Virus record (IMG/VR): IMGVR_UViG_3300034945_000003
Span: 1 to 37,315 of that record
Length of the DNA stretch: 37,315 nucleotides
From: a virus
Taxonomy: Duplodnaviria; Caudoviricetes
Strand: one strand, 5' to 3'
How positions within the stretch are numbered: position 1 is the stretch's first letter; every line of letters begins with the position of its first letter. The notes beneath the pieces were generated by a model. That model worked only from the letters and a program-made list of their open reading frames with translations, ran no database searches and was not told the origin of the DNA. Shown one piece after another: positions 1,302 to 37,315 of the stretch. The position numbers and the translations under genes are program-made.

Positions 1302-1943
1302 ATGCAAGATTCACAAATCGAAAAACTAAAAGAGAAAGGACTTTTCGGAAGTACATTAGATCCTTTATGGGATGGAGAGATGCACAAGTGTTGTGGAAGT
1401 ACTAGATCCTTTTATCACAGGAAAGGATGTAAGCTCTGCTCAGATTCACTAGAGAACGGAAAGCTTAATATCAGAGTATTCAAGAATGAAGTAGGGAATG
1501 AGGTGAGACTCAACAAGCATCTCAAGAGAAAGAATAATGATATTGTAGCTGCTATGTACGCAATGTACTGCTTGCCTAAGTCTCTAGAAGAAGTAGGAAA
1601 GGCTTATAGAAAATCTAGACAATGTATTTATGATCTATTCCACTCTAGAGGTTATCCTCTCCGATCTAAGCAGCTAAAAGGTCTTACTGTGGTAGATGGA
1701 ATAAAGTTTACTCTTACTAGAGGTGGATACTTGAGAGGTACTGTAAATAAAAAAAGAGTACTTTTGCATCAGTATATTTGGGTGAAGCATCATGGTGAGA
1801 TTCCTAAGGGTCATGTTCTCTTTTTTATAGATCACAACCATCAAAATGTTTCTATTGAGAATCTAAAAGCTATCCCTAAGAGCATGATGAGTGTATACTT
1901 TAATCCATCAGGGAATAATCAATTTACAAAAAAGAAAGTATGA
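1302..1943 (+). CDS. HNH-like endonuclease-family protein with N-terminal Cys/His motif and central HTH-like segment
   Basis: GGYLRG..LHQYIWVKHHGEIPKGHVLFFIDHNHQNVSIENL is an HNH_3-type pattern; SLEEVGKAYRKSRQCIYDL is HTH-like. Confidence 0.7.
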   Translation: MQDSQIEKLKEKGLFGSTLDPLWDGEMHKCCGSTRSFYHRKGCKLCSDSLENGKLNIRVFKNEVGNEVRLNKHLKRKNNDIVAAMYAMYCLPKSLEEVGKAYRKSRQCIYDLFHSRGYPLRSKQLKGLTVVDGIKFTLTRGGYLRGTVNKKRVLLHQYIWVKHHGEIPKGHVLFFIDHNHQNVSIENLKAIPKSMMSVYFNPSGNNQFTKKKV

Positions 1944-2518
1944 AAAAGCTCTCGATAGTAATCATGGCTCATCCTAGCCGAGCTAAATTTATACCATACC
2001 TAAAAGAAATGTTAGGAGATGACATACCTGTAGTTTTTGATGAGAAGAATAATATTTGGGATACGTGCAGGAGGGCTTGGTTTGCGCAAGACTTTAGCTG
2101 TGAATATGGGGTAGTGATTCAAGATGACTGTATCATCACTCGCAATTTCAGAAAGAAAGCAGAGAAGCTTTTAACTGAAGATTTTATTTACTCTTTTTAT
2201 GCAGGAGAGATGTTAAGAGAAAAGATAAGGATAGCTCTACACTACAAGAGTGATAGAGTAATAAGCTCTATGATCTTTAATGAAGTGGCTCTCTGTATGA
2301 AGATGTCTAGAGTAAAAGACATGGTGAAATTCTGTGACGAAAGAGAAGCACAGACAGATCATGAAATAGTGAAGTATGCTCGTTCTCAAAATCTTAAAGT
2401 CTGCTATACACTTCCTAGCTTGGTAGATCATAGAGACACAGAAAGTATTTGGAGAAAGATGCAAGGGGGTAAAGTGTTTAGTAGTAAGCCACGTAAAGCT
2501 GTAAAATTTTTATCATGA
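1940..2518 (+). CDS. putative glycosyltransferase (GT-A fold)
   Basis: SIVIMAHPSR N-terminal strand, VVIQDDC acidic motif, PSLVDH motif. Confidence 0.65.
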   Translation: MKKLSIVIMAHPSRAKFIPYLKEMLGDDIPVVFDEKNNIWDTCRRAWFAQDFSCEYGVVIQDDCIITRNFRKKAEKLLTEDFIYSFYAGEMLREKIRIALHYKSDRVISSMIFNEVALCMKMSRVKDMVKFCDEREAQTDHEIVKYARSQNLKVCYTLPSLVDHRDTESIWRKMQGGKVFSSKPRKAVKFLS

Positions 2519-3255
2519 CAACAATTAAAAAAGGTAAAGTATTACCATACCAGATAAAAAATAATACTCTCACAACAGCTTTTATTATTCGTATGCACTT
2601 TAAGAAAGAAGATCCACGCTGGTCTTGGAGACTAGCATACTTTCAGAGTATTGTACTTCCTAAGATTCTCTCTCAAAGAGATCAAGACTTTGATATTTGT
2701 ATCCGGGCAAATAAGCATCACGAAAAAGAGTTACTAGCACTATCTCCAAAGATTAAAGTATTTGATGTAGATCCTAAAAAGAAGAATTGGGTGAAGCCGG
2801 GATATGAAGCTAAGATTAAGAAGTACTTTGTAGACTTTGTAAACTTTGAGGATATTATAGGACTTGATAGATATGATATTCAGATAGGAATAGACTCTGA
2901 TGACATGCCTATACGAGATGACTTTGTTACTAGAATAAAAAAAGAGGTGGAGAAAGATAGAGAGAGATCATTACATATCTCTTTTCAGCCTCAGATATTC
3001 CAGCCATCCACTTTAAGAGTGTATGAGTGTCCTTTTGAGTATGGTGTCTCTACTCTTAAAGGATCTCCTGTCTTTGCGATCTATCAGCCACTAAAAGGTA
3101 AAGGATATATGTACGCTTATGAGGACTCTCATTTGCTACTTCCTAGATACATGAATAAGGCTATTCGAATTGAGGATGACTACTGTGTATACTCAGTACA
3201 TGAATGTAACTCTTCTACTAGTCTTAATAGAAATTCTAAGCAAATAATGATATGA
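2515..3255 (+). CDS. putative glycosyltransferase (GT-A, rhamnosyltransferase-like)
   Basis: WRLAYFQSIVLPKILSQRDQDF and IDSDD motifs, C-terminal VHECNSS. Confidence 0.6.
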   Translation: MTTIKKGKVLPYQIKNNTLTTAFIIRMHFKKEDPRWSWRLAYFQSIVLPKILSQRDQDFDICIRANKHHEKELLALSPKIKVFDVDPKKKNWVKPGYEAKIKKYFVDFVNFEDIIGLDRYDIQIGIDSDDMPIRDDFVTRIKKEVEKDRERSLHISFQPQIFQPSTLRVYECPFEYGVSTLKGSPVFAIYQPLKGKGYMYAYEDSHLLLPRYMNKAIRIEDDYCVYSVHECNSSTSLNRNSKQIMI

Positions 3256-3989
3256 GAAAAATGAAATTCTATCGTTATCCTCATCCGTCAAATGTAGGGG
3301 ATACACTCACTCCATTCATTCTGAATCACTTTGTAAAAGATGTGGATTTCTCTCAAGTAAGAGAAGCAGAAAGTGGTAAACTTATAGCAGTAGGAAGCAT
3401 CATGAGGGTAATAAAGCCGGGAGACACAATATGGGGGTCAGGTGTCATGCGTGAGACAGATCAATTCCCACAAGCTAAAGACTGTACCTTTCTAGCAGTA
3501 AGAGGAAAACTATCAAGGGATATTTTAATAAGAGACGGTGGGAAAGTTCCGGCAGTCTATGGAGATCCTGCAATACTTCTACCCCTCATGTATAATCCAA
3601 AAATTGAAAGGACTCACAAAGTAGGTATCATCCCTCACTTTGTAGACACTCATCTTATTACAAAGCAATTTGGAAATAAGTTAGCAGGACATTCAGACTG
3701 GAAGATTATAGATGTTTTTCTACCCTATGAAGAGTTTATTAATGAAGTACTAAGCTGTGAGAAAGTAATCTCTAGCTCTCTACATGGATTAATTATTGCT
3801 GAAGCTTACGGCCTAGAAGCTGAGTGGGTAGTATTGAGTGAGAAAGTCATAGGTAATGGCTTCAAATTCAGAGACTATCTTACAGGCACAAATAGAGATC
3901 CACAGGGTCCAGGACTATTCCCTAAACTCGACATGAAGCTACTTACTAAATTGCAAAACAATTTATTAAAAGCCCTAGAGAAAATATAA
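3252..3989 (+). CDS. polysaccharide pyruvyl transferase family protein (ExoV-like)
   Basis: NVGD, AVGSI, IWGSG, AVRGKLS, GDPAILLP, GIIPHF, SSSLHGLIIAEAYG, FKFRDY motifs. Confidence 0.9.
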   Translation: MRKMKFYRYPHPSNVGDTLTPFILNHFVKDVDFSQVREAESGKLIAVGSIMRVIKPGDTIWGSGVMRETDQFPQAKDCTFLAVRGKLSRDILIRDGGKVPAVYGDPAILLPLMYNPKIERTHKVGIIPHFVDTHLITKQFGNKLAGHSDWKIIDVFLPYEEFINEVLSCEKVISSSLHGLIIAEAYGLEAEWVVLSEKVIGNGFKFRDYLTGTNRDPQGPGLFPKLDMKLLTKLQNNLLKALEKI

Positions 3990-4696: not shown

Positions 4697-4742
4697 TTAT
4701 CCACGATATGCACTATACTTTTCTCTCTTTATCGAGTAAAAT
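4697..4742 (+). promoter_or_regulatory. promoter of packaging genes (leaderless terS)
   Basis: TTATCCACG box, TATACT(4714)-17 nt-TAAAAT(4737), ATG 6 nt after the -10. Confidence 0.6.
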
Positions 4743-4748
4743 GTATAA

Positions 4749-5210
4749 ATGAAGCAAGACACTAAGACAACAAAAAACTCGGTAAAAACTGGGAAAGATG
4801 AAAAGAAGCCTGTAGGAAGAGAAATAGGTTATGCAAATCTTATTCCAGGAGCAAATAAGAAAGGACGTCCAAAGGGAAAGCTTAATTATAATACTCGCTT
4901 TGATCTAGCTGTAGACTTCTTAGCAGAGCAGTTGGTACTCAAGCACAATGCAGATCCAAAGAATAAGAACAAGCAACTAAAGCTAGATGATGTAGACATC
5001 AATAATGATCTCTTTGCTCAAGCTATTCAGAAAGCTAGAAACGGTAGTGAGAAGATGCTTATAGATATTTTTGATAGACGATATGGTAAGGCTACACAAC
5101 CTATAGAACTCTCAGGAAAAGATGGAGATCCTATTCAGTATGAGATAGAGATGAAAGAAGCTGAGGGTAGACTAAAGAAATTCCAAAATAAGTGGTTTAA
5201 GAAGAAATAA
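4749..5210 (+). CDS. terS: terminase small subunit
   Basis: NKKGRPKG motif, DRRYGKATQPIELSGKDGDPI tail, directly upstream of terL. Confidence 0.8.
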   Translation: MKQDTKTTKNSVKTGKDEKKPVGREIGYANLIPGANKKGRPKGKLNYNTRFDLAVDFLAEQLVLKHNADPKNKNKQLKLDDVDINNDLFAQAIQKARNGSEKMLIDIFDRRYGKATQPIELSGKDGDPIQYEIEMKEAEGRLKKFQNKWFKKK

Positions 5211-8762: not shown

Positions 8763-9467
8763 ATGAATGAACTAGCCAAAAAACTTGTTGAACAAAAAAG
8801 AGCAAAGGCTCTTGAAATGGCAGGAAAGAAAATTGAGATTCAACTAACTCATAAGGCACTCACTATTGATGAGGATACTCATACAGCTATATTCGTGATG
8901 AGTACATGCTCTATAGATCGTCATGGAGACATTGTAGATCAGGACTCATGGAAGCTAGAATACTTTAAGCTTAATCCTTACTTTGCTCTTCAGCATCGCT
9001 CAGATCAGTTTCCTCTAGGTAAGTGGTTGGAAGTATGGCTAGAAGCAGATCCTAATAACCCAGGAAAGCAGAGACTCGTAGGTAAGGCAGAATTTGCTGT
9101 AGACATCGAGGGAGCAGATGACATCAAGCGAGCATGGGAGCATGTGAAGCGTGGAGATATGAATATGGTATCTATTGGCTTTATTCCTCATCGTGTTGAG
9201 TATGATGAGAACACTGATGCTTTCGTACTCTATGACTGTGAGCTTATGGAATGTTCTCTAGTAGGTATTGGATCTAACCGTCAAGCACTTGTTAAGGAAG
9301 TCTTAACAACTGAAAAGAAAGACGTTGTAGAGGTGGATGAAAAGAAAGAGGCTCTTATTAAAGTAGCTTCTGCTCTTGACATAGAACTCCAAAAAGAGAA
9401 TACTAAGAGTATCAATAGAGCTAAGGCTCATGAATTGGTTTGCAAAGCCATCCGTCAAATGAAATAG
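8763..9467 (+). CDS. HK97-family prohead protease
   Basis: DRHGDIV, ALQH, VSIGF, LMECSLVGIGSN; ATG 8763 preferred. Confidence 0.9.
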   Translation: MNELAKKLVEQKRAKALEMAGKKIEIQLTHKALTIDEDTHTAIFVMSTCSIDRHGDIVDQDSWKLEYFKLNPYFALQHRSDQFPLGKWLEVWLEADPNNPGKQRLVGKAEFAVDIEGADDIKRAWEHVKRGDMNMVSIGFIPHRVEYDENTDAFVLYDCELMECSLVGIGSNRQALVKEVLTTEKKDVVEVDEKKEALIKVASALDIELQKENTKSINRAKAHELVCKAIRQMK

Positions 9468-13087: not shown

Positions 13088-13420
13088 ATGTCATATCTCT
13101 CACTACTCATCCAACTATGTACCATTCAAGCTAAGTCTCTTACTACTACCGGGTATGAGCAAATTGAATCATGGGAAGATGTAGCTGAGGATGTGCCTTG
13201 TAGAAAGGATAAAGACAACTCTCCAAGTATTTCAGATGGAGACATGAGAAAGAATACTGATAACGATCTATTTTATTTCATGCCCACAGTAGTTATTGAG
13301 AGAGGTAACAGAATCATTATTGATGGAGAAACGTATGATGTGCTTAAAGTAAATAAGTCTATGGACTCTACTGAGGTGCATCATCTCGAAGTAACAGCAA
13401 GGATGACAGACAACAAATAA
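13088..13420 (+). CDS. head-closure (stopper) protein
   Basis: WEDVAEDVPCR..RIIIDGETYDVL..HHLEV pattern; gene position. Confidence 0.8.
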   Translation: MSYLSLLIQLCTIQAKSLTTTGYEQIESWEDVAEDVPCRKDKDNSPSISDGDMRKNTDNDLFYFMPTVVIERGNRIIIDGETYDVLKVNKSMDSTEVHHLEVTARMTDNK

Positions 13421-13423
13421 TCT

Positions 13424-13801
13424 ATGTCATTAAAAGCAGTCATACAATTTATTAATAAGACTGATGATGTTGAGAAAGGAGTAGGAAAGTTCGTAAATGT
13501 AGCTGTACAGAAATCTCTTCTAGTGATGGAGAGAAACATAAAAGTAAATACTCCTGTACAAGAGGGACATCTCAGAAGAAGTATATCCAACAGGATGATA
13601 GATTTTTTTAATGGAGAAGTGTTCACTAACCCTGTCAGTGGAAATGTGGAAACGAAGTATGCTCTGTTCGTGGAATTTGGAACTAAGTTTATGGCCCCAC
13701 GTGCGATGTTTAGAAAAGGAGCTGCTCAGTCTCAAGAAAAGATACAAGAGATATTCAAAGATGAAGCTGAGAACGTGCTGAGTGAGGTAAGGGGTGTATA
13801 A
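13424..13801 (+). CDS. HK97 gp10-like tail component
   Basis: TPVQEGHLRRSI, YALFVEFGT, MAPRAMF. Confidence 0.9.
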   Translation: MSLKAVIQFINKTDDVEKGVGKFVNVAVQKSLLVMERNIKVNTPVQEGHLRRSISNRMIDFFNGEVFTNPVSGNVETKYALFVEFGTKFMAPRAMFRKGAAQSQEKIQEIFKDEAENVLSEVRGV

Positions 13802-20003: not shown

Positions 20004-22460
20004 ATGTCAACAAGAGTATTTTTTATAAATTCGGATACAACATTATACGGAGAGGAAGAGCTTAACTCACTTCCTAAATTTCTTTTTAATCAAGGTGTCT
20101 TAAATACTCTCGGAACTTCTTGGGAGGACTGGGTAGATAATGGCGATCTAAAGGTTACAGAAAGAGGTGCTGGGGCTAATATGTCAGTAGATGTAAGCGC
20201 TGGGTGGGCGCTTATAGAGACAGTAAGGAACTCTCTTACTTTTAAGGTTTTCTGTCAGAATCTTGCTACTGTGAATCTTCCTATCACAGCTAACTCATCA
20301 GGTTTAAATCGTATAGATGCGATCATCATGCGAGTAGATAGAAGTGCGGAGCCGAATCTCCTTGCAAATAATATTGTAACTATGGAAGTTGTGCTTGGGG
20401 ATGGTGCTACTCCACTTTCAGATGGAGATATTACTACTGCTATAGGAAGTGATGACTTTGTTCGCCTTGCAGATATTACTGTACCCGATTCTACTCCTGA
20501 TATTACAACTGGAGATATTGCAGATACTCGTGTAAGAGCTTCAACAAATAATGTTTTCTCAGTTGCTCCTGAAGTAATCGAGATCCAAGTACTCTCAGCA
20601 GATCCTACCAACCTTGTAGAGGGAATGGTTTGGTTTAATTCAACAACTCATACACTGAATATGTACAATGGCTCAACCATCAAAGAACTTGGTGGAGCAG
20701 CCGCTTTTCTAGCAGGGGATGATGCGACTGTTGACGGAACTGATCAGGTGCAAGCTGTAGTAGATGCTACTCGTGCAGTTGGTGAGGCAAATGCTACTAC
20801 AAAAAATAATAAACTTGCTCAGTCTTTTACAGCAGGAAAAACATCTTTAGTAGGAGTAAAACTTTATAAGCAAGCAGACACAGGTACTTTTACTGGATCA
20901 GTTACAGTAGAAATTTATGCTTCTTCAGGTGGTAATCCAACAGGCTCAGCGCTAGCGACTGTAACCATCACAAATGCAGAGTGGTTGAAAATTGGAGTAG
21001 GAGAATTTACTGCTACTTTTGCTTCGCCTTATGTTGCCGGTATTGCAACTATTTATCATATTCAAATTAGTACTTCTACATCAGATAACTCTAATCATCC
21101 TAATCTCGGAACTAACTCAGCAGGTGGGTATGCTTCAGGATCTACTAAGTTCTGGAACGTTACTGACGGGTGGACAGCTATCTCAACTATCGATCTATAC
21201 TTTAAGACTCTTACAACAAAAGTAAATAAAGTTGTACAAACTAATAGTAATGGAAAAGTAGATGATGAGCTTCTTCCTTTCACATTAAATTCTTATCCTA
21301 TGGGTGAGGCTTTTACAGGAGCAACGACTCCACAGCCAGCCGTTCTAATTAACGATTTAGAACAAACTATTATGGATAACGTTCTTGCTTTCGGAGCTGC
21401 TGGATCTCCTAGAGTTGCTTGTAAAATTGTACCTCGCCAAAGCTGTACTATTGATAGAGTTGTAGGGCTTCTTTACAGGACAACAGATCCAGGAACAAAC
21501 CTCTCTGTAGAAATTCAGACTAACAACGCAGGAGTGCCTAGTGATACTCCGATAACAAACGGTACTTCTGTTACTATTGCTACATCTACAGTTACAAATC
21601 AAGAATTTAGATACCAGAACTTTACATTTTCAACACCACCAACTCTCTATGCCGGTGTTACATATTGGTTAGTTTTTAAGACTTCAGCAACAAACGCAAA
21701 CCAAATAACAGCACCATCACTTACACACGCAAAGAAGTATGCAAGTTTTGTTGGAGCATCACACAACGGAAGTGCTTGGTCTGCTAATCAGCCTATTCCT
21801 TACTTTGAAATGATATGTGCTACTGGTGGATCAAAGTCTCTATGGGTGGCAGATGGTAATGGGGTAGAGCCTATAAGTGGCGCTGATGGTTTTGTTATAA
21901 ATAGTGGTAATGCAGGTGATTATGCAAAATTCAAAGCTTTTGGTAATGTGCCAGGATTCACAAACTTAAATTACGGGTCTGATTACTACCTGTCGAACAC
22001 AGCAGGAACTATCACTTTAGTTAAAGGTGAAGGGATGTTTCTCGGTACAGCAATCTCTACAACTGAGTTATCTGTACCAGTTAGTAAAATAAAACCAGTA
22101 AACTCACGATATGCAGGTGTATTTCTAATGGGTACAAATACTCAAATGTTTAGTGTCCCTCACTATGCTAGAGAGGATGGATTCTTTATGTTTACTGGAA
22201 ATGTATCTCCTAAAAACAGTACTCCTGTTGTCATCTATACATGGACCTGTACCTCTTATGCAAATGCTACTAACCCTATTAGTGTAAATACGAATCAGTG
22301 GGAAATGGCACGTAGTATCTCTAACGCAAACTCTGCTTCTTCTGCAAGTATGACTATACCGGTTAAGAAAGGGGATAGAGTTCAGTGGGGATCTTCAGCT
22401 TGGGCAGGTGCCGGTACTAACCCTGGACTAGATCAAGTTTTCTTTAGAGGAAAAAATTAA
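20004..22460 (+). CDS. tail fibre / receptor-binding protein
   Basis: N-terminal MSVDVSAGWA..NRIDAI..LADITVP..IADTR anchor; T/S/G/N-rich beta domains. Confidence 0.8.
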   Translation: MSTRVFFINSDTTLYGEEELNSLPKFLFNQGVLNTLGTSWEDWVDNGDLKVTERGAGANMSVDVSAGWALIETVRNSLTFKVFCQNLATVNLPITANSSGLNRIDAIIMRVDRSAEPNLLANNIVTMEVVLGDGATPLSDGDITTAIGSDDFVRLADITVPDSTPDITTGDIADTRVRASTNNVFSVAPEVIEIQVLSADPTNLVEGMVWFNSTTHTLNMYNGSTIKELGGAAAFLAGDDATVDGTDQVQAVVDATRAVGEANATTKNNKLAQSFTAGKTSLVGVKLYKQADTGTFTGSVTVEIYASSGGNPTGSALATVTITNAEWLKIGVGEFTATFASPYVAGIATIYHIQISTSTSDNSNHPNLGTNSAGGYASGSTKFWNVTDGWTAISTIDLYFKTLTTKVNKVVQTNSNGKVDDELLPFTLNSYPMGEAFTGATTPQPAVLINDLEQTIMDNVLAFGAAGSPRVACKIVPRQSCTIDRVVGLLYRTTDPGTNLSVEIQTNNAGVPSDTPITNGTSVTIATSTVTNQEFRYQNFTFSTPPTLYAGVTYWLVFKTSATNANQITAPSLTHAKKYASFVGASHNGSAWSANQPIPYFEMICATGGSKSLWVADGNGVEPISGADGFVINSGNAGDYAKFKAFGNVPGFTNLNYGSDYYLSNTAGTITLVKGEGMFLGTAISTTELSVPVSKIKPVNSRYAGVFLMGTNTQMFSVPHYAREDGFFMFTGNVSPKNSTPVVIYTWTCTSYANATNPISVNTNQWEMARSISNANSASSASMTIPVKKGDRVQWGSSAWAGAGTNPGLDQVFFRGKN

Positions 22461-24336: not shown

Positions 24337-24500
24337 CGTTTCATGTGAAAAGTAATAACCATTATACACTTTACTAGGACGTATATGACATCGTTACTAG
24401 GACAAATCTGTCCAACTTTTCCTTTTACTCTATATATATAATAATAATAAATTAATAAGAGATAATGTGAGGAATTGATTTTTTTAATTCTTAAAGATTT
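24337..24500. other. putative replication origin region
   Basis: TTACTAGGAC x2 (24371, 24394), inverted repeat GGACAaatcTGTCC (24400-24413), adjacent very AT-rich tract; upstream of the initiator gene. Confidence 0.45.
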
Positions 24501-24516
24501 TACTGATCTATTTAGA

Positions 24517-24563
24517 GTTACGCACAGGCAAATATTATATATGACTCTCGGATAGGGTATAAT
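24517..24563 (+). promoter_or_regulatory. GTTACGCACA-box promoter, copy 1
   Basis: GTTACGCACA at 24517; TATAAT at 24558. Confidence 0.7.
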
Positions 24564-24593
24564 CTTACAAGGGCAGAATTACAGCATCTAAAC

Positions 24594-24947
24594 ATGACAC
24601 AACAGCAAACAAGAAAATCAACCTTAATAACCACTTTCACAGGAGATATTTATATAATCTATGACAAGACTCCTGATGAAATAATGCAAGCGATAGAGCA
24701 TGTAGATATGGTAACAATGCCGAATGGATCTCGAATCCATAAAAAGTCTTTCTCATCTCTTCAGAGTTACGAAGACTATACTTTTCAAACAGAGCAGAAA
24801 GCTCGACATAAGAAAGGGCAGTATTTGAGAAATGGTGAGTGGAATGATAATCAAGGTCCGTTAGGAATAAAAGCAGAGCTAGAGAGAATCACAGGGACTC
24901 TTCCTAGTCTTGAATCTTCAAAGACTAAACAATTAACAACTTCTTAA
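24594..24947 (+). CDS. hypothetical protein
   Basis: First ORF after the promoter; carries the ACAGCA...ATGACA leader. Confidence 0.75.
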   Translation: MTQQQTRKSTLITTFTGDIYIIYDKTPDEIMQAIEHVDMVTMPNGSRIHKKSFSSLQSYEDYTFQTEQKARHKKGQYLRNGEWNDNQGPLGIKAELERITGTLPSLESSKTKQLTTS

Positions 24948-24948
24948 T

Positions 24949-25908
24949 ATGATTAAAAAATGTAAACTCTGTGAAGTCGAGGAATCAGAAGAAATACTTT
25001 TTCATAAGCATCACATCAAACAAAGGAAAGAAGGTGGAGATGATTCAAAAGAAAATTTAATAGATATTTGCAATGACTGTCATTATGCGATTCATCATCC
25101 TGAGAGAATTGATGGAGAACTGAAAGGATTAGAAAGTGATTACAAAGAGATGATAAGAGTGAATATATTTGCAGATGGTTATGGGGTAGTACCAAACAGA
25201 ATTCTTAGAGATAATAAAATCTCTCACTTTTCAAAAGTACTCTACTCAGAGCTTTCATCTCTCTGTGCTAGTAGAGGATATTGCTGGGCAACTAATGAAT
25301 ACTTTGCACGAGTATTTAAGGTAAGTGTAAGAACAGTAACACGAGCACTCGCAGAATTAGATCCTTATATTGTTATCAGAAATAAGATGAGTCCTAAGCG
25401 ACAGATATGGGTACATACTTTAAGTGGAGTAGAGCCTCGCCCTATAAAAGTTCAAGATAAAAAAAGAGTAGGAGAAAAGGGTTTGAACTCTCCAAAGAAA
25501 AAATCTGAAAAGAAAGTAGCTAAGAAATATCAGTTCACAGCACAAGATACAATGCTTGCTGAATATCTACTCTCAAGGATCTTGTACAACTTCCCTCACT
25601 TCCATAATAAGAAAGTAAACATTGATGAGTGGTCTGATGATATGAGAAAGCTGAGAGAGATCGACAAAGCCACAGCTCAACAGATCCACTTTATGATTAC
25701 ATGGGTACATGGTGGAACTATCGAAGAGAAGAAAGATAGTGATACAGGAAAGGTAACTCCTATGCGAGAGATGAAGCCTAATGAATTTTGGAGTAAGAAT
25801 ATCTTGAGTGCTAGTAAGTTAAGAAAGCAATGGTTTGATAATCTAGTACCACAGCTTCAACAGGATCTTAAGAAAGCAATTCAGAAGTCATCCACAGTAC
25901 AGCTCTAG
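24949..25908 (+). CDS. replication initiator (HTH_36-type) with N-terminal HNH domain
   Basis: CKLC..HHIK..GGDDSKENLIDICNDCHYAIH; VVPNRILRD..KVLYSEL..GYCWATNEYFA..SVRTVTRALAEL; C-terminal FWSKNILSASKLRKQW. Confidence 0.8.
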   Translation: MIKKCKLCEVEESEEILFHKHHIKQRKEGGDDSKENLIDICNDCHYAIHHPERIDGELKGLESDYKEMIRVNIFADGYGVVPNRILRDNKISHFSKVLYSELSSLCASRGYCWATNEYFARVFKVSVRTVTRALAELDPYIVIRNKMSPKRQIWVHTLSGVEPRPIKVQDKKRVGEKGLNSPKKKSEKKVAKKYQFTAQDTMLAEYLLSRILYNFPHFHNKKVNIDEWSDDMRKLREIDKATAQQIHFMITWVHGGTIEEKKDSDTGKVTPMREMKPNEFWSKNILSASKLRKQWFDNLVPQLQQDLKKAIQKSSTVQL

Positions 25909-25914
25909 GATCTC

Positions 25915-25943
25915 TTGGAGATTTAAGGCTCCATTGCTATAAT
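25915..25943 (+). promoter_or_regulatory. sigma70-type promoter of the sRNA
   Basis: TTGGAG-17 nt-TATAAT with extended TG. Confidence 0.75.
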
Positions 25944-25949
25944 TAATCC

Positions 25950-26052
25950 CGGTAGTATGTGATTTGTCATCCTTACTATCTGCTGTTATTCTCGGCTAGT
26001 AATAGCCAAAAAATAACTCTGAAGAACATCCCGAAAGGGGTGTTTTTCTTTT
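25950..26052 (+). ncRNA. putative trans-acting antisense sRNA (~100 nt)
   Basis: No ORF; own promoter; three hairpins (two with GNRA loops); seeds complementary to six start-codon regions. Confidence 0.75.
26021..26052 (+). terminator. intrinsic terminator of the sRNA
   Basis: GAAGAACATCCC-GAAA-GGGGTGTTTTTC then TTTT. Confidence 0.85.
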
Positions 26053-26058
26053 GTCTAA

Positions 26059-26106
26059 GTTACGCACAGTTATACACTTTACTTTCTCTAAAGTAAAATG
26101 TATAAT
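26059..26106 (+). promoter_or_regulatory. GTTACGCACA-box promoter, copy 2
   Basis: GTTACGCACA-GTTATACAC-TTTACT-17 nt-TATAAT. Confidence 0.8.
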
Positions 26107-26142
26107 AGAGAAGTTAGTAAGAGTAACAGCAAAATATTATTT

Positions 26143-26304
26143 ATGACAAACAGGTATCAAACATGCAAGAAGTGTCTACCACACTGGGGAGAATTAGGAG
26201 CTTGTAAAAGCCACAGTGGAGTATGGGACTTAGATCATGTTAACGTCGTAAGATGGATACAAATAGGATTATTCATTTTATGGAAAAAAGTATGGCCAAG
26301 ATAA
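26143..26304 (+). CDS. 53-aa hypothetical Cys/His protein
   Basis: ATG 26143 preferred because ATG 26098 lies inside the promoter. Confidence 0.55.
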   Translation: MTNRYQTCKKCLPHWGELGACKSHSGVWDLDHVNVVRWIQIGLFILWKKVWPR

Positions 26305-26528
26305 AAGAAGAAAAGTTTTATACTCCAAAAGAGATCACAGAGCTTGGTATCATGACAGCTTCATCTCCTGATACTAAACGTCAGATGCTTTTGAGGTTTA
26401 TTCGTGAGGGTAGAATTCAAGCAGTTAATTTAGGTGGAGATAAGAAGCCTCGTTATGTTGTTCAAGGTAAGCATCTAATGGAGTATATGAATACTCAGAT
26501 GAAGCCGGGAGAATATACGAAGAAGTAA
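26292..26528 (+). CDS. excisionase/HTH_17-like DNA-binding protein
   Basis: FYTPKEI..LRFIREGRIQAVNLG..PRYVV. Confidence 0.7.
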   Translation: MAKIKEEKFYTPKEITELGIMTASSPDTKRQMLLRFIREGRIQAVNLGGDKKPRYVVQGKHLMEYMNTQMKPGEYTKK

Positions 26529-26561
26529 TTTACAAAGTGAGTTAAAAATAACAGCAAACAA

Positions 26562-27212
26562 ATGACAAACATTTTAGAAGCTCAGAAAGAGCTAAAGCCA
26601 CTAGAGACTGAGATCGTATCTTTCAAAGAGAAAGTTGAAGCTCTTAGTATTACAAGTGATGAAGAATACAACGAAGCAATGAAGCTTGCAGGAATCATCA
26701 AGAGCAAAGAGGATGAGACTGAGAAGATGCGAAAGTTCTTCACAGCTCCACTCAACAAGCAAGTAGATGATATTAATGCTATGTTCATGCCTAAGGTAAA
26801 AGAGGCTAAAGAAATTGTCTCTATCATCAAGAGTAAGATGGCTTCATACAATGAAAAGAAAGAAGCTGATGCTAGGGCAGAACAGAAGCGCTTAGATGAC
26901 ATCCGGGCAAAGGCTGATCTCAAGCGACAAGAGCAAGGGAAAGAAGCTATCGCTACTCCTGTTCGAGAAGTTGCTCCAGTTGCTAAGACTGTAGTAAGTG
27001 ATGGTATCCAGTCTACAGTTAAGAAAGTGTGGACTCATGAGATCCTAAGCATCAATGAGCTTCCTGATGATGTAAAGAAAGCTATCTTTGCAGAAGCTTT
27101 TAATAAGGGAATCATTAAGACAGTTGTTCAGAAATTTGTGAACGCAGGTATTCGTGAAATGACAGGTGTGAAGATTTATCAAGAGAGTCAAATAGCTCTC
27201 AAGAGGGGGTAG
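26562..27212 (+). CDS. coiled-coil hypothetical protein of the recombination module
   Basis: Long helical region, KKVWTHEI..GVKIYQE C-terminus; precedes RecT. Confidence 0.7.
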   Translation: MTNILEAQKELKPLETEIVSFKEKVEALSITSDEEYNEAMKLAGIIKSKEDETEKMRKFFTAPLNKQVDDINAMFMPKVKEAKEIVSIIKSKMASYNEKKEADARAEQKRLDDIRAKADLKRQEQGKEAIATPVREVAPVAKTVVSDGIQSTVKKVWTHEILSINELPDDVKKAIFAEAFNKGIIKTVVQKFVNAGIREMTGVKIYQESQIALKRG

Positions 27213-27258: not shown

Positions 27259-27290
27259 TAAGATATTACTAAATAACAGCAATTTGGTTT

Positions 27291-28136
27291 ATGACAAATA
27301 ATAAACAAACGTTAAAAGAGCAGATTATAGGTTTGCTCAAGAAAGAAAATAAAGAGCATGTAGAAGCTTTTGCTTCATACTGTTTGAGGCTTGCTACTGA
27401 GAAAGTTCGAGGAAAAGAAGAATTAAAAAATCCTTGGATGAGTACCAAGACTCCTGATGTCTTAGCTAAGTTGTTTCAGAGAGTTAAAGCTGAGGGATTA
27501 GTTTTTGATGGAAAGCATGTAACACTTCTTAATCGTGGTATCAGTTACGACTACCAAGCATATAAAAATAAAATGCTTCTAGTCTATCCTGAAAGTAAGA
27601 TAGATGTGGATGTGGTTAAAGAGGGGGATACTGTAAATTTTGATAAGGTGGATGGAGATATTACATACCGCCATATTATTAAAGATGCTTTTCAGAATCC
27701 TACTTTTGAGAATATCAAAGGTGCTTACTGTGTTATTCGTAACTCTCGTGGTGCTTTCTTAACAACTCTTTCAAAAGAGGAAATTCAGAAGCATAGAGCT
27801 ATCGCTCAAACAGATCAGATGTGGAAAGCTTGGTTTAAGGAAATGGTACTCAAGACTGTTCTTAAGAAAGGTTACAAGTATCACTTTGATGATCTAGCTG
27901 TAACAATGAATGAAGATGACAATCAGCATGTTGATCTAGAGAGAGTCATAGCCGATGACGAAGATCAAGAACGTTTTGAAGAAGAGAAGAAAAGAGTGCT
28001 TGATGTTATTAAGACTTATTCTGATCTAAAAAAGTTGAGAGAGTACTTTAAGACTCTTCCGGCTGAGTTCTCTAAAGATGAAGATGTAATCGAAGCTTTT
28101 AAGGCTCACGCAGAAGTATGCAAGAATACGAAATAA
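27291..28136 (+). CDS. recT: RecT-family single-strand annealing protein
   Basis: VVKEGD, IKGAYCVI, LSKEEIQKHR, WKAWFKEMVLKTVLK. Confidence 0.8.
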   Translation: MTNNKQTLKEQIIGLLKKENKEHVEAFASYCLRLATEKVRGKEELKNPWMSTKTPDVLAKLFQRVKAEGLVFDGKHVTLLNRGISYDYQAYKNKMLLVYPESKIDVDVVKEGDTVNFDKVDGDITYRHIIKDAFQNPTFENIKGAYCVIRNSRGAFLTTLSKEEIQKHRAIAQTDQMWKAWFKEMVLKTVLKKGYKYHFDDLAVTMNEDDNQHVDLERVIADDEDQERFEEEKKRVLDVIKTYSDLKKLREYFKTLPAEFSKDEDVIEAFKAHAEVCKNTK

Positions 28137-33037: not shown

Positions 33038-33577
33038 ATGACAACAACAGACACAAAGACTATTACAATTTCTAATCCGGCAGGACTTCCAACTATCCCC
33101 TGGAAGAAGCTAAAGGAGTGGGAGCCTAACACTCTTAAAGAAAAAAAGAATCGTGATGTCGGTGATCTAAAAGCCTCCATTCTCGCTATGGGCTTCACTA
33201 TCCCATTCTTTGTGTGGGAAAAGGGGAAATACATAGCTGATGGCGCAGGACGTCATCTAGCCCTAGAATTGCTCGAATACGAGGGATACGAGATCCCTGA
33301 TCTCCCTTATGTTCCTCTAGAAGCCAAAAACAGGGCAGAGGCTAAGCGCCTAGTACTTGCTATCAGCTCTCAATATGGTCTAGTTACTCCGGGAAGTATC
33401 GGAGAGTTTACTTTTGATCTTAAAGAAATAGACATCTCTTTCATCAATGTAGAGGGGTATAACCTAGAAGAGATAGACTGGACTCCACCAAAATCAAAAG
33501 AGATCGATATGGAAAGAATGAAAGGAGAGACTAAGATGGTCCACAAATGTCCTAAGTGTCAGTTTGAATTTAACTAA
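33038..33577 (+). CDS. ParB/Srx-like N-terminal domain protein with C-terminal CxxC
   Basis: LKASILAMGFTIP..IADGAGRHLAL; HKCPKCQFEF; the type usually found next to phage methyltransferases. Confidence 0.7.
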   Translation: MTTTDTKTITISNPAGLPTIPWKKLKEWEPNTLKEKKNRDVGDLKASILAMGFTIPFFVWEKGKYIADGAGRHLALELLEYEGYEIPDLPYVPLEAKNRAEAKRLVLAISSQYGLVTPGSIGEFTFDLKEIDISFINVEGYNLEEIDWTPPKSKEIDMERMKGETKMVHKCPKCQFEFN

Positions 33578-34697: not shown

Positions 34698-34728
34698 ATA
34701 GATATTAGAAAAGTAACAGCAAAAACAA

Positions 34729-34989
34729 ATGACAACACAAACAATTAATTCAATAAGTTTCAAGAATGAGAAATGTGTAATCTTCCTTAACGAAGATAAG
34801 ACTTTCTCAGGAAGAGATATGACAGATCCTTGGAATGAGCCTCGTATGTACACAAAGAATACTCGTTCATTCAAGAGAGGTGTAGAAGCACTTAAGAAAG
34901 CTTTTGATGACAATACTACAATGTATCAAGTAGCAGGAATTCTTAATGACTGTGGACTTAATGCTCGTACATACTGCTCAGTAGATTAA
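34729..34989 (+). CDS. hypothetical protein
   Basis: First gene after the promoter, with the conserved leader. Confidence 0.75.
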   Translation: MTTQTINSISFKNEKCVIFLNEDKTFSGRDMTDPWNEPRMYTKNTRSFKRGVEALKKAFDDNTTMYQVAGILNDCGLNARTYCSVD

Positions 34990-36817: not shown

Positions 36818-36845
36818 GTAAGTATACAAAAATAACAGCAAACAA

Positions 36846-37315
36846 ATGACAAAAGACTATTATCCAACTCCTAACAAAGTATTAGATCAGATGCTTCTAG
36901 GTGTTCAATTTGATGAGATAAATACTATTCTAGAGCCAAGCGCAGGTAAGGGGGATATTTGTGATTACATCCGAGAAAGGAGAAATCGCAGGTCAGATGA
37001 TTTAAGTATTGACGTAGTAGAGATTGATACTGATCTTCAGAAGATTCTACAGGGCAAGAAATACAATTTGGTCTATGATGATTTTCTTTCTTTTCAGACT
37101 TCTAAAAAGTATGATTTGATAGTAGCTAACTTTCCTTTCTCTGATGGAGATGAGCACCTACAGAAAGCTCTACAACTTCAGGAGCAGTATGGTGGCTCTC
37201 TCATCTGTTTAGTAAACGCTGAGACTATAAAAAATCCTTATTCAAATTTAAGAAAGACTTTAGTAACAAAGCTTGAAAAGTATGGGGCTGAAATAAAATA
37301 TCTTCAAGATATGTT
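36846..37315 (+). CDS. N6-adenine-type DNA methyltransferase domain protein (3'-truncated by window edge; not in ORF track)
   Basis: MTKDYYPTP..ILEPSAGKGDI..VEID..DDFL..YDLIVANFPF. Confidence 0.85.
   Translation, partial: MTKDYYPTPNKVLDQMLLGVQFDEINTILEPSAGKGDICDYIRERRNRRSDDLSIDVVEIDTDLQKILQGKKYNLVYDDFLSFQTSKKYDLIVANFPFSDGDEHLQKALQLQEQYGGSLICLVNAETIKNPYSNLRKTLVTKLEKYGAEIKYLQDM

Follow-up and report, generated by a model that had tools for sequence, protein, structure and literature searches.

In phages P1 and P7, the antisense RNA c4 acts together with a protein repressor and is matured from a precursor by RNase P. Bacterial sRNAs of the GcvB type are encoded in trans and have a regulon of several mRNAs, while the guides of TIGR-Tas systems are two-part. 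According to the available part of PMC2864571, c4 corresponds to the Rfam family RF01695. Its exposed segments pair near the ribosome-binding site and block translation, and the sequence specificity of this pairing underlies the heteroimmunity of P1 and P7, as described in the accessible text of PMC12197685, where the phage sRNAs Sar, VpdS and PreS are also found. The CI RNA of the satellite phage and phage-plasmid P4 is an immunity factor that shuts off the replication genes by pairing at two sites; it is processed from the transcript that it controls and is flanked by seqA and seqC (PMC4825925, in the part available). TIGR-Tas systems are RNA-guided and occur in phages and in parasitic bacteria (PMC12045711, accessible portion).

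Here we describe a locus in a window of 37,315 nucleotides, the IMG/VR virus record IMGVR_UViG_3300034945_000003. From its sequence, the stretch 25915-26052 is predicted to be a ~100-nt RNA gene that closes the replication operon. We consider it quite likely that the phage thereby encodes a trans antisense RNA, which would pair over the ribosome entry sites of the early genes and repress their translation.

Like c4, this is a small phage RNA with exposed segments predicted to pair near the ribosome-binding site, and here too two separate segments, a loop and a toehold, match a two-part target (pairing predicted, covariation in 9 of 11 phages). Unlike c4, which acts on an antirepressor mRNA, it has no match to RF01695, its targets are the leaders of separate early operons spread over 12 kb, and neither an antirepressor nor a CI-type gene was found among 60 ORFs. 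With P4 CI it shares the predicted silencing of replication genes by pairing. However, the RNA has a predicted promoter and terminator of its own, and each target is tied to a start codon at a distance of 0.1-11 kb; only the target at 24594 is possibly on the transcript of the RNA, while the others lie behind its terminator. At the sequence level it resembles the GcvB-type and phage sRNAs in having its own promoter, a short seed, an intrinsic terminator and several unlinked targets at initiation regions, but its targets share a near-perfect box of 9-16 nt that is rewritten together with the seed between phages, and all identified targets are the phage's own genes. TIGR-Tas systems are similar in that they are found in phages, are RNA-guided and have two-part guides. 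The present RNA, in contrast, exists as a single copy with no repeat array among the window repeats listed, no Nop-domain match is found among the 60 window proteins, and the two seeds are directed at start codons on one and the same mRNA strand.

We found no description of this RNA in the literature, although subscription papers or supplements may hold one. The contig numbers of six relatives were unmatched in the available part of the supplement of PMC10690425, and the RNA may be catalogued there unnamed.

The RNA element

The features of the element and of the gene preceding it are as follows.

24949..25908, + strand, replication-initiator gene (HNH, HTH_36, DnaD/O-like), with the RNA at the end of its operon in 11/11 phages
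25915..25943, + strand, predicted sigma-70-type promoter (TTGGAG at 25915-25920, 17 nt, TATAAT at 25938-25943)
25950..26052, + strand, predicted small RNA of ~103 nt, from its fold and the architecture common to the relatives
25951..25980, + strand, hairpin 1, from folding
25963..25970, + strand, loop seed TTTGTCAT, antisense to the start codon and the next codons
25981..25992, + strand, main seed, antisense to the leader box, with TGCTGTTATT at 25981-25990
25985..26017, + strand, hairpin 2, upper stem GGCTA-GTAA-TAGCC at 25994-26007
26021..26052, + strand, GAAA-loop intrinsic terminator with U tract, from the sequence, present in 11/11 phages

Promoter, hairpins, both seeds and terminator had all been noted in the original prediction, and each of them is found where it had been placed. 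The supposed 10-nt linker is really the 3' arm of hairpin 1 and offers no free strand. Transcripts of the replication operon would also end in the segment predicted as the RNA. The element folds with z = -5.7, and 25921-26153 recurs with zero differences in a DNA contig that the same study obtained from a second sample.

In the predicted fold, the first 4-5 nt of the main seed are open and form a toehold, while its 3' half is enclosed by the lower stem of hairpin 2 through predicted pairing with 26012-26017. The loop of hairpin 1 is only partly open in the window. Searches with the Rfam covariance models gave no match at gathering score for the window and 10 relative loci, and RF01695 is absent among 9 weak Rfam hits up to E 5.

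Relatives of the phage

An initiator profile, built from 46 of 71 proteins, retrieved 80 viral, 14 metagenome and 52 genome loci, and the 17 best-scoring viral and metagenome loci were inspected. They comprise ten distinct close-relative contigs, one duplicate and six more distant loci (L134, L211-L215), the latter with no such RNA behind the initiator. Among the ten, L125, L127, L128, L129, L131 and L132 are full contigs, referred to as G001-G006, and L126, L133, L207 and L210 are fragments. The terminases of four relatives are 70-79% identical to that of the window.

All ten relatives carry the element in the same position, at the end of the replication operon (11/11 with the window), with a length of 82-124 nt. 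A TTG lies 16-18 nt upstream of the -10 box in 11/11 phages, and the order of promoter, hairpin, short open seed stretch, second hairpin and terminator with a + strand U tract is likewise shared by 11/11. The sequence of the stems varies; in five relatives the loop is 8 nt long, starting with C and ending with A. RNAalifold, run on a plain sequence alignment of 8 hairpin regions, yielded no consensus pairs, thus the structure rests on single-sequence folds. When the two seeds of the window were scanned over viral contigs, at least 119 loci were hit, and the matches listed look chance-like.

In L128 (10939-11139) and L129 (~9105-9175), a small ORF with a strong Shine-Dalgarno (SD) site lies directly behind the RNA terminator; the remaining genes of these two contigs are SD-less.

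Target leaders and promoters

The predicted targets of the RNA in the window, an example of their promoters and the gene behind the first leader are listed here; ranks refer to the two-seed score over 58 genes described below.

24575..24599, + strand, target leader of the 117-aa gene heading the replication-initiator operon; weakest site of the window
24594..24947, + strand, gene of the 117-aa protein, whose N-domain is a small beta-barrel; it adjoins the RNA and is one of its targets
26059..26106, + strand, example of a target promoter, with the GTTACGCAC box followed by CACTTTAC (-35 region) and a -10 box, from the sequence
26122..26150, + strand, target leader of a 53-aa gene, the first in the operon of the HTH gene; rank 1 of 58
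26547..26569, + strand, target leader of a 216-aa gene, operon-internal and without its own promoter motif; rank 3
27272..27299, + strand, target leader of recT, heading the recombination/SSB/helicase operon; rank 2
34712..34735, + strand, target leader of an 86-aa gene heading an accessory operon; rank 4
36831..36853, + strand, target leader of a methyltransferase-like gene; helix energies the same as for 26562

The pattern ACAGCA-N5..11-ATGACA has 7 matches in the window, i.e. six start codons and one reversed copy at 25965-25986, while shuffled sequences contain 0.04 on average and 1 at most; as the pattern was derived from the finding itself, the count of 7 is not blind. The spacers of the targets at 24594, 26143, 26562, 27291, 34729 and 36846 are 7, 11, 5, 9, 7 and 5 nt, respectively. 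The original prediction of a shared two-part motif holds at all six named starts. Exactness, however, is limited to some of them: the 10-nt box is exact in three of the six targets (26562, 27291 and 36846), a variant with G.U is present in two (26143 and 34729), the box at 24594 contains one internal mismatch, and ATGACAAA is exact in 4/6.

Five of the six targets lie downstream of a repeated promoter motif, the exception being 26562. Besides the example above, the GTTACGCAC box starts at 24517, 27212, 34650 and 36761. Judged by the distance from the predicted -10 boxes, the leaders are ~25-30 nt long.

Other features of these promoters were also observed. A 9-mer which we take to be DnaA-box-like is found at most 40 nt upstream of 30 of the 44 CACTTTAC promoter motifs in the window, G001-G006, L126, L133, L207 and L210, whereas 193 of 5100 random windows have one. 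Its positions in the window are 24517, 26059, 27212, 34650 and 36761. Host DnaA might act as a gate on these early promoters as well. Many CACTTTAC promoters also contain an inverted repeat spanning the -35 and -10 regions that could be an operator. The start of the late operon, at 4699-4751, has a comparable promoter motif and a DnaA-like box, and the ATG comes immediately after, without a leader and without the RNA box. Its mRNA is possibly leaderless and outside the regulon.

Two further sense copies of the box are located in late genes, at 13390-13409 and 21706-21713. In the former both parts of the motif match, separated by a 3-nt spacer; it ends 14 nt before the start of a tail-completion gene at 13424 and is either a chance match or a seventh site.

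Covariation of seeds and leader boxes

Comparison of the 11 phages reveals 10 different 9-nt boxes, and the seed of each RNA tracks its box. For a cross test, 55 leaders were chosen, namely those of orthologues of 24594, 26562 and 27291 or of the first ORF behind a promoter motif, ignoring the seed and keeping wrong picks. By a fixed rule, each RNA was taken as the stretch +5 to +60 downstream of the -10 box, and its score is that of its best unbroken helix. Across 11 RNAs and 55 leaders, the own RNA is best in 9/11 phages, and the two exceptions involve near-identical boxes (G003, G004, L207). The mean for the own RNA is -11.0 kcal/mol against -5.3 +/- 0.7 in permutations (p 5e-6, with kinship ignored). 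In a tree of the initiator C-terminus 0/8 branches are well supported, therefore independent changes are uncounted and the permutation p ignores kinship. This joint change of seed and box, which had been proposed as a check in related phages, strongly supports a trans antisense RNA acting on dispersed start regions.

The zone around the AUG also covaries (p 2.4e-4), with the own RNA best in just 3/11 columns. In G003 and G004 the loop seed is CCAT and the targets start with ATGG, and in G006 the loop seed is extended and matches the GC before the ATG in 7/7 leaders. Pairing of the main seed falls within 0-15 nt ahead of the AUG. A requirement for two seeds is not supported, as L126 and L133 are without the AUG seed in the loop; L126 instead has a 15-nt pairing up to the base preceding the AUG. 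Because of these two phages, the upstream-box seed is, on the basis of predicted pairing, the core and the loop seed an addition.

When the genomes of eight phages were scanned with a sliding window, no coding-strand site is a better antisense match than the RNA in 7/8, and in G006 it comes third. With both strands included, it ranks 5, 1, 1, 1, 1, 6, 3 and 3, and the other-strand windows ranked ahead are mirror images of further box copies. A two-seed score, for which the split point was set by hand after the pairing had been seen and in which 36846 is unscored since its frame runs off the end, places the window targets at ranks 1-4 and 14 of 58 genes. The expectation that all six targets would top an energy ranking thus fails, both at 24594, which is the target at rank 14, and in unconstrained duplex folding of the whole 5' part of the RNA, which does not rank the targets top. 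The leaders orthologous to 24594 rank 1, 3, 5, 4 and 5 in G001-G005.

Some leaders fit less well. Of the 55 chosen by rule, 8 have fewer than 8/12 matches, some of them being wrong start picks; several G006 leaders pair poorly, and the gene directly after the RNA has no good box in G002 and L126. Departures from perfect pairing show no strand bias between G.U and A.C (33/427 vs 13/137, p 0.48, in 47/55 leaders).

The 117-aa neighbour protein

The model of the 117-aa protein is a confident one with a pLDDT of 82, and the protein belongs to an orphan family with 25 cluster representatives. The top Foldseek rows are mostly Hfq, at weak scores (E ~0.1, TM 0.46 by target). A wide structure search (VIA) gives Z 2.9 against Hfq/Sm, with an rmsd of 3.5 over 44 residues, tied with SH3-type barrels, and a sequence-profile search gave no Hfq match. 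The family travels with replication initiators of two kinds: in L300 the 117-aa gene follows an unrelated initiator and there is no RNA behind it. From this context it looks like a replication-module protein. With the weak Foldseek rows, no stand-out in the wide search and the L300 context, we consider it unlikely that the 117-aa protein is a phage Hfq. On the structural model, a chaperone role would be a low-odds proposal.

Genome, lifestyle genes and likely host

With a completeness of 99%, the window is a nearly full siphovirus record, and all its annotated genes lie on the + strand. Genes for packaging, head, tail and lysis extend up to 24222 and are followed by replication, recombination, helicase, methylase and accessory genes. 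Among the 60 window ORFs scanned, an integrase had no match, as was the case for the antirepressor and the CI-type repressor. In the relatives, integrase PF00589, resolvase PF00239 and HTH_3 PF01381 are each found in 0/5. These phages might carry a divergent repressor.

The SSB is nearest to clusters dominated by Minisyncoccota and Sungiibacteriota, and SD-like 4-mers occur at 1/51 window starts compared with 11.7% of random windows. From the SSB placement and the near-absent SD signals, the host is likely to be a member of the Patescibacteria. The RecT query returned no relative in annotated phages or viral contigs. In genome contigs the initiator has only distant relatives (best E 6e-12), so no prophage or host is identified. 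Many Patescibacteria phages are described as potentially temperate in the available text of PMC12911398, which has no direct bearing on the present phage family.

Several other features of the genome deserve mention. A piece of DUF4942 opens the left end (27-356), and the methyltransferase-like target gene (36846-37315) is truncated by the right end; the record probably represents a circular genome that was opened inside a single gene. Three adjoining sugar-transfer genes, for a glucosyltransferase, a rhamnosyl-transferase-like protein and a polysaccharide pyruvyl transferase, precede the terminase genes at 1940-3989. At 33038, a ParB-like match lies beside a methyltransferase-family match. 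Short direct repeats resembling origin iterons are present at ~24380-24420 of the window, and iteron-like short direct repeats were seen by eye before the initiator operon of several relatives (L126, L127, L128, L129, L210). A conserved small HTH protein, MamR-like (E 1.3e-4), is encoded at 26253-26528 between two target leaders and is a candidate DNA-binding regulator.

Alternative explanations

The RNA could pair with the leaders and work via the fate of the transcript, by premature termination or decay, with the ribosome block being secondary. Termination by pairing with seqA and seqC is how P4 CI acts (PMC4825925, available part), and five of the six targets are at transcript 5' ends. However, the pairing keeps to positions 0-15 nt ahead of the AUG and in most cases extends over it, and the target at 26562 is internal yet keeps the same AUG register, which makes this explanation unlikely. 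Pairing might also activate, the RNA being a trans adaptor or stabiliser that helps SD-less leaders to load ribosomes. A phage without SD signals, and a pairing that ends short of the AUG in L126 and L133, would be consistent with such a role, but the loop covers the AUG itself in 9/11 phages, most phage genes, including all late genes, are without the box, and the A-rich leaders have, by eye, nothing obvious to unmask. We therefore regard activation as very unlikely.

That the box is a binding site for a phage protein on DNA or RNA, with the reversed copy as one more site, appears even more improbable. The phage does encode the HTH protein at 26253-26528 and the orphan beta-barrel protein, and the G.U strand bias was not found. 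Yet the spacer between the half-sites varies from 5 to 11 nt, the reversed copy is always between a promoter and a + strand terminator, in loop or single-strand positions, and it would be incapable of serving as an RNA decoy. The original prediction also offered the alternative that the segment is an inverted seventh leader of a short minus-strand ORF, and in the window a 15-codon frame indeed opens at the reversed ATG. We reject it, since the frame is conserved neither in length nor in sequence (1-88 codons in the relatives, with unrelated sequences), the start codon is missing in L133 and L126 and is only GTG in L207 and L210, and the promoter and the U tract point in the + direction in 11/11 phages; this is the least credible of the four.

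Proposed mechanism and role in the life cycle

We suggest that translational repression by the antisense RNA would proceed in the following way. Host RNA polymerase would make the RNA from its own promoter, and the RNA would also arise as the 3' end of the replication-operon mRNA. The open toehold of 4-5 nt on the 3' side of hairpin 1 would nucleate on the leader box, and the helix would then grow to 9-16 bp as the lower stem of hairpin 2 is melted, with the loop of hairpin 1 additionally pairing with the AUG in 9/11 phages. On SD-less leaders of ~25-30 nt such a duplex would cover nearly all of the ribosome landing site, which makes repression of translation the most likely effect. As five of the six targets head operons of tightly abutting genes, the block would have polar effects on genes for replication, recombination and accessory functions, among them those for the initiator, RecT, exonuclease, SSB and helicase. 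The RNA would accumulate with time and genome copy and thereby give negative feedback or early shut-off; its place at the end of an operon that it targets suggests negative feedback on replication. An incoming phage with the same box would be silenced as well.

The RNA may serve to shut off early genes, to control copy number or to confer immunity in a state without integration. More tentatively, and with some doubt, it can be speculated that non-integrating Patescibacteria phages keep a dormant or carrier state without a protein repressor, in which one RNA would be the whole immunity system. If this is true, the head gene of every early operon would be silenced by a single RNA, and the fast-changing pair of seed and box would define the immunity type, as an RNA counterpart of the CI-operator code. 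It can be argued that selection for heteroimmunity would favour a box that changes quickly between phages otherwise much alike; the c4 RNAs of P1 and P7 provide a parallel (PMC12197685, in the accessible text).

By its predicted pairing, the RNA works like c4 and CI and differs from them in model match and in target arrangement. To the best of our knowledge, the phage antisense repressors known so far each act on one mRNA or one locus. New here is that each early-operon leader appears to carry one short address, that one RNA would serve them all and that both are rewritten between relatives. The 11 natural pairs of RNA and leader are a ready cross-specificity panel, thus the mechanism can be tested without culturing the host. 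The RNAs could also supply compact orthogonal repressors for SD-less mRNAs. If confirmed, the RNA would be a master switch at the RNA level and perhaps also serve as an immunity code, and this in phages whose hosts belong to a group with barely explored gene regulation.
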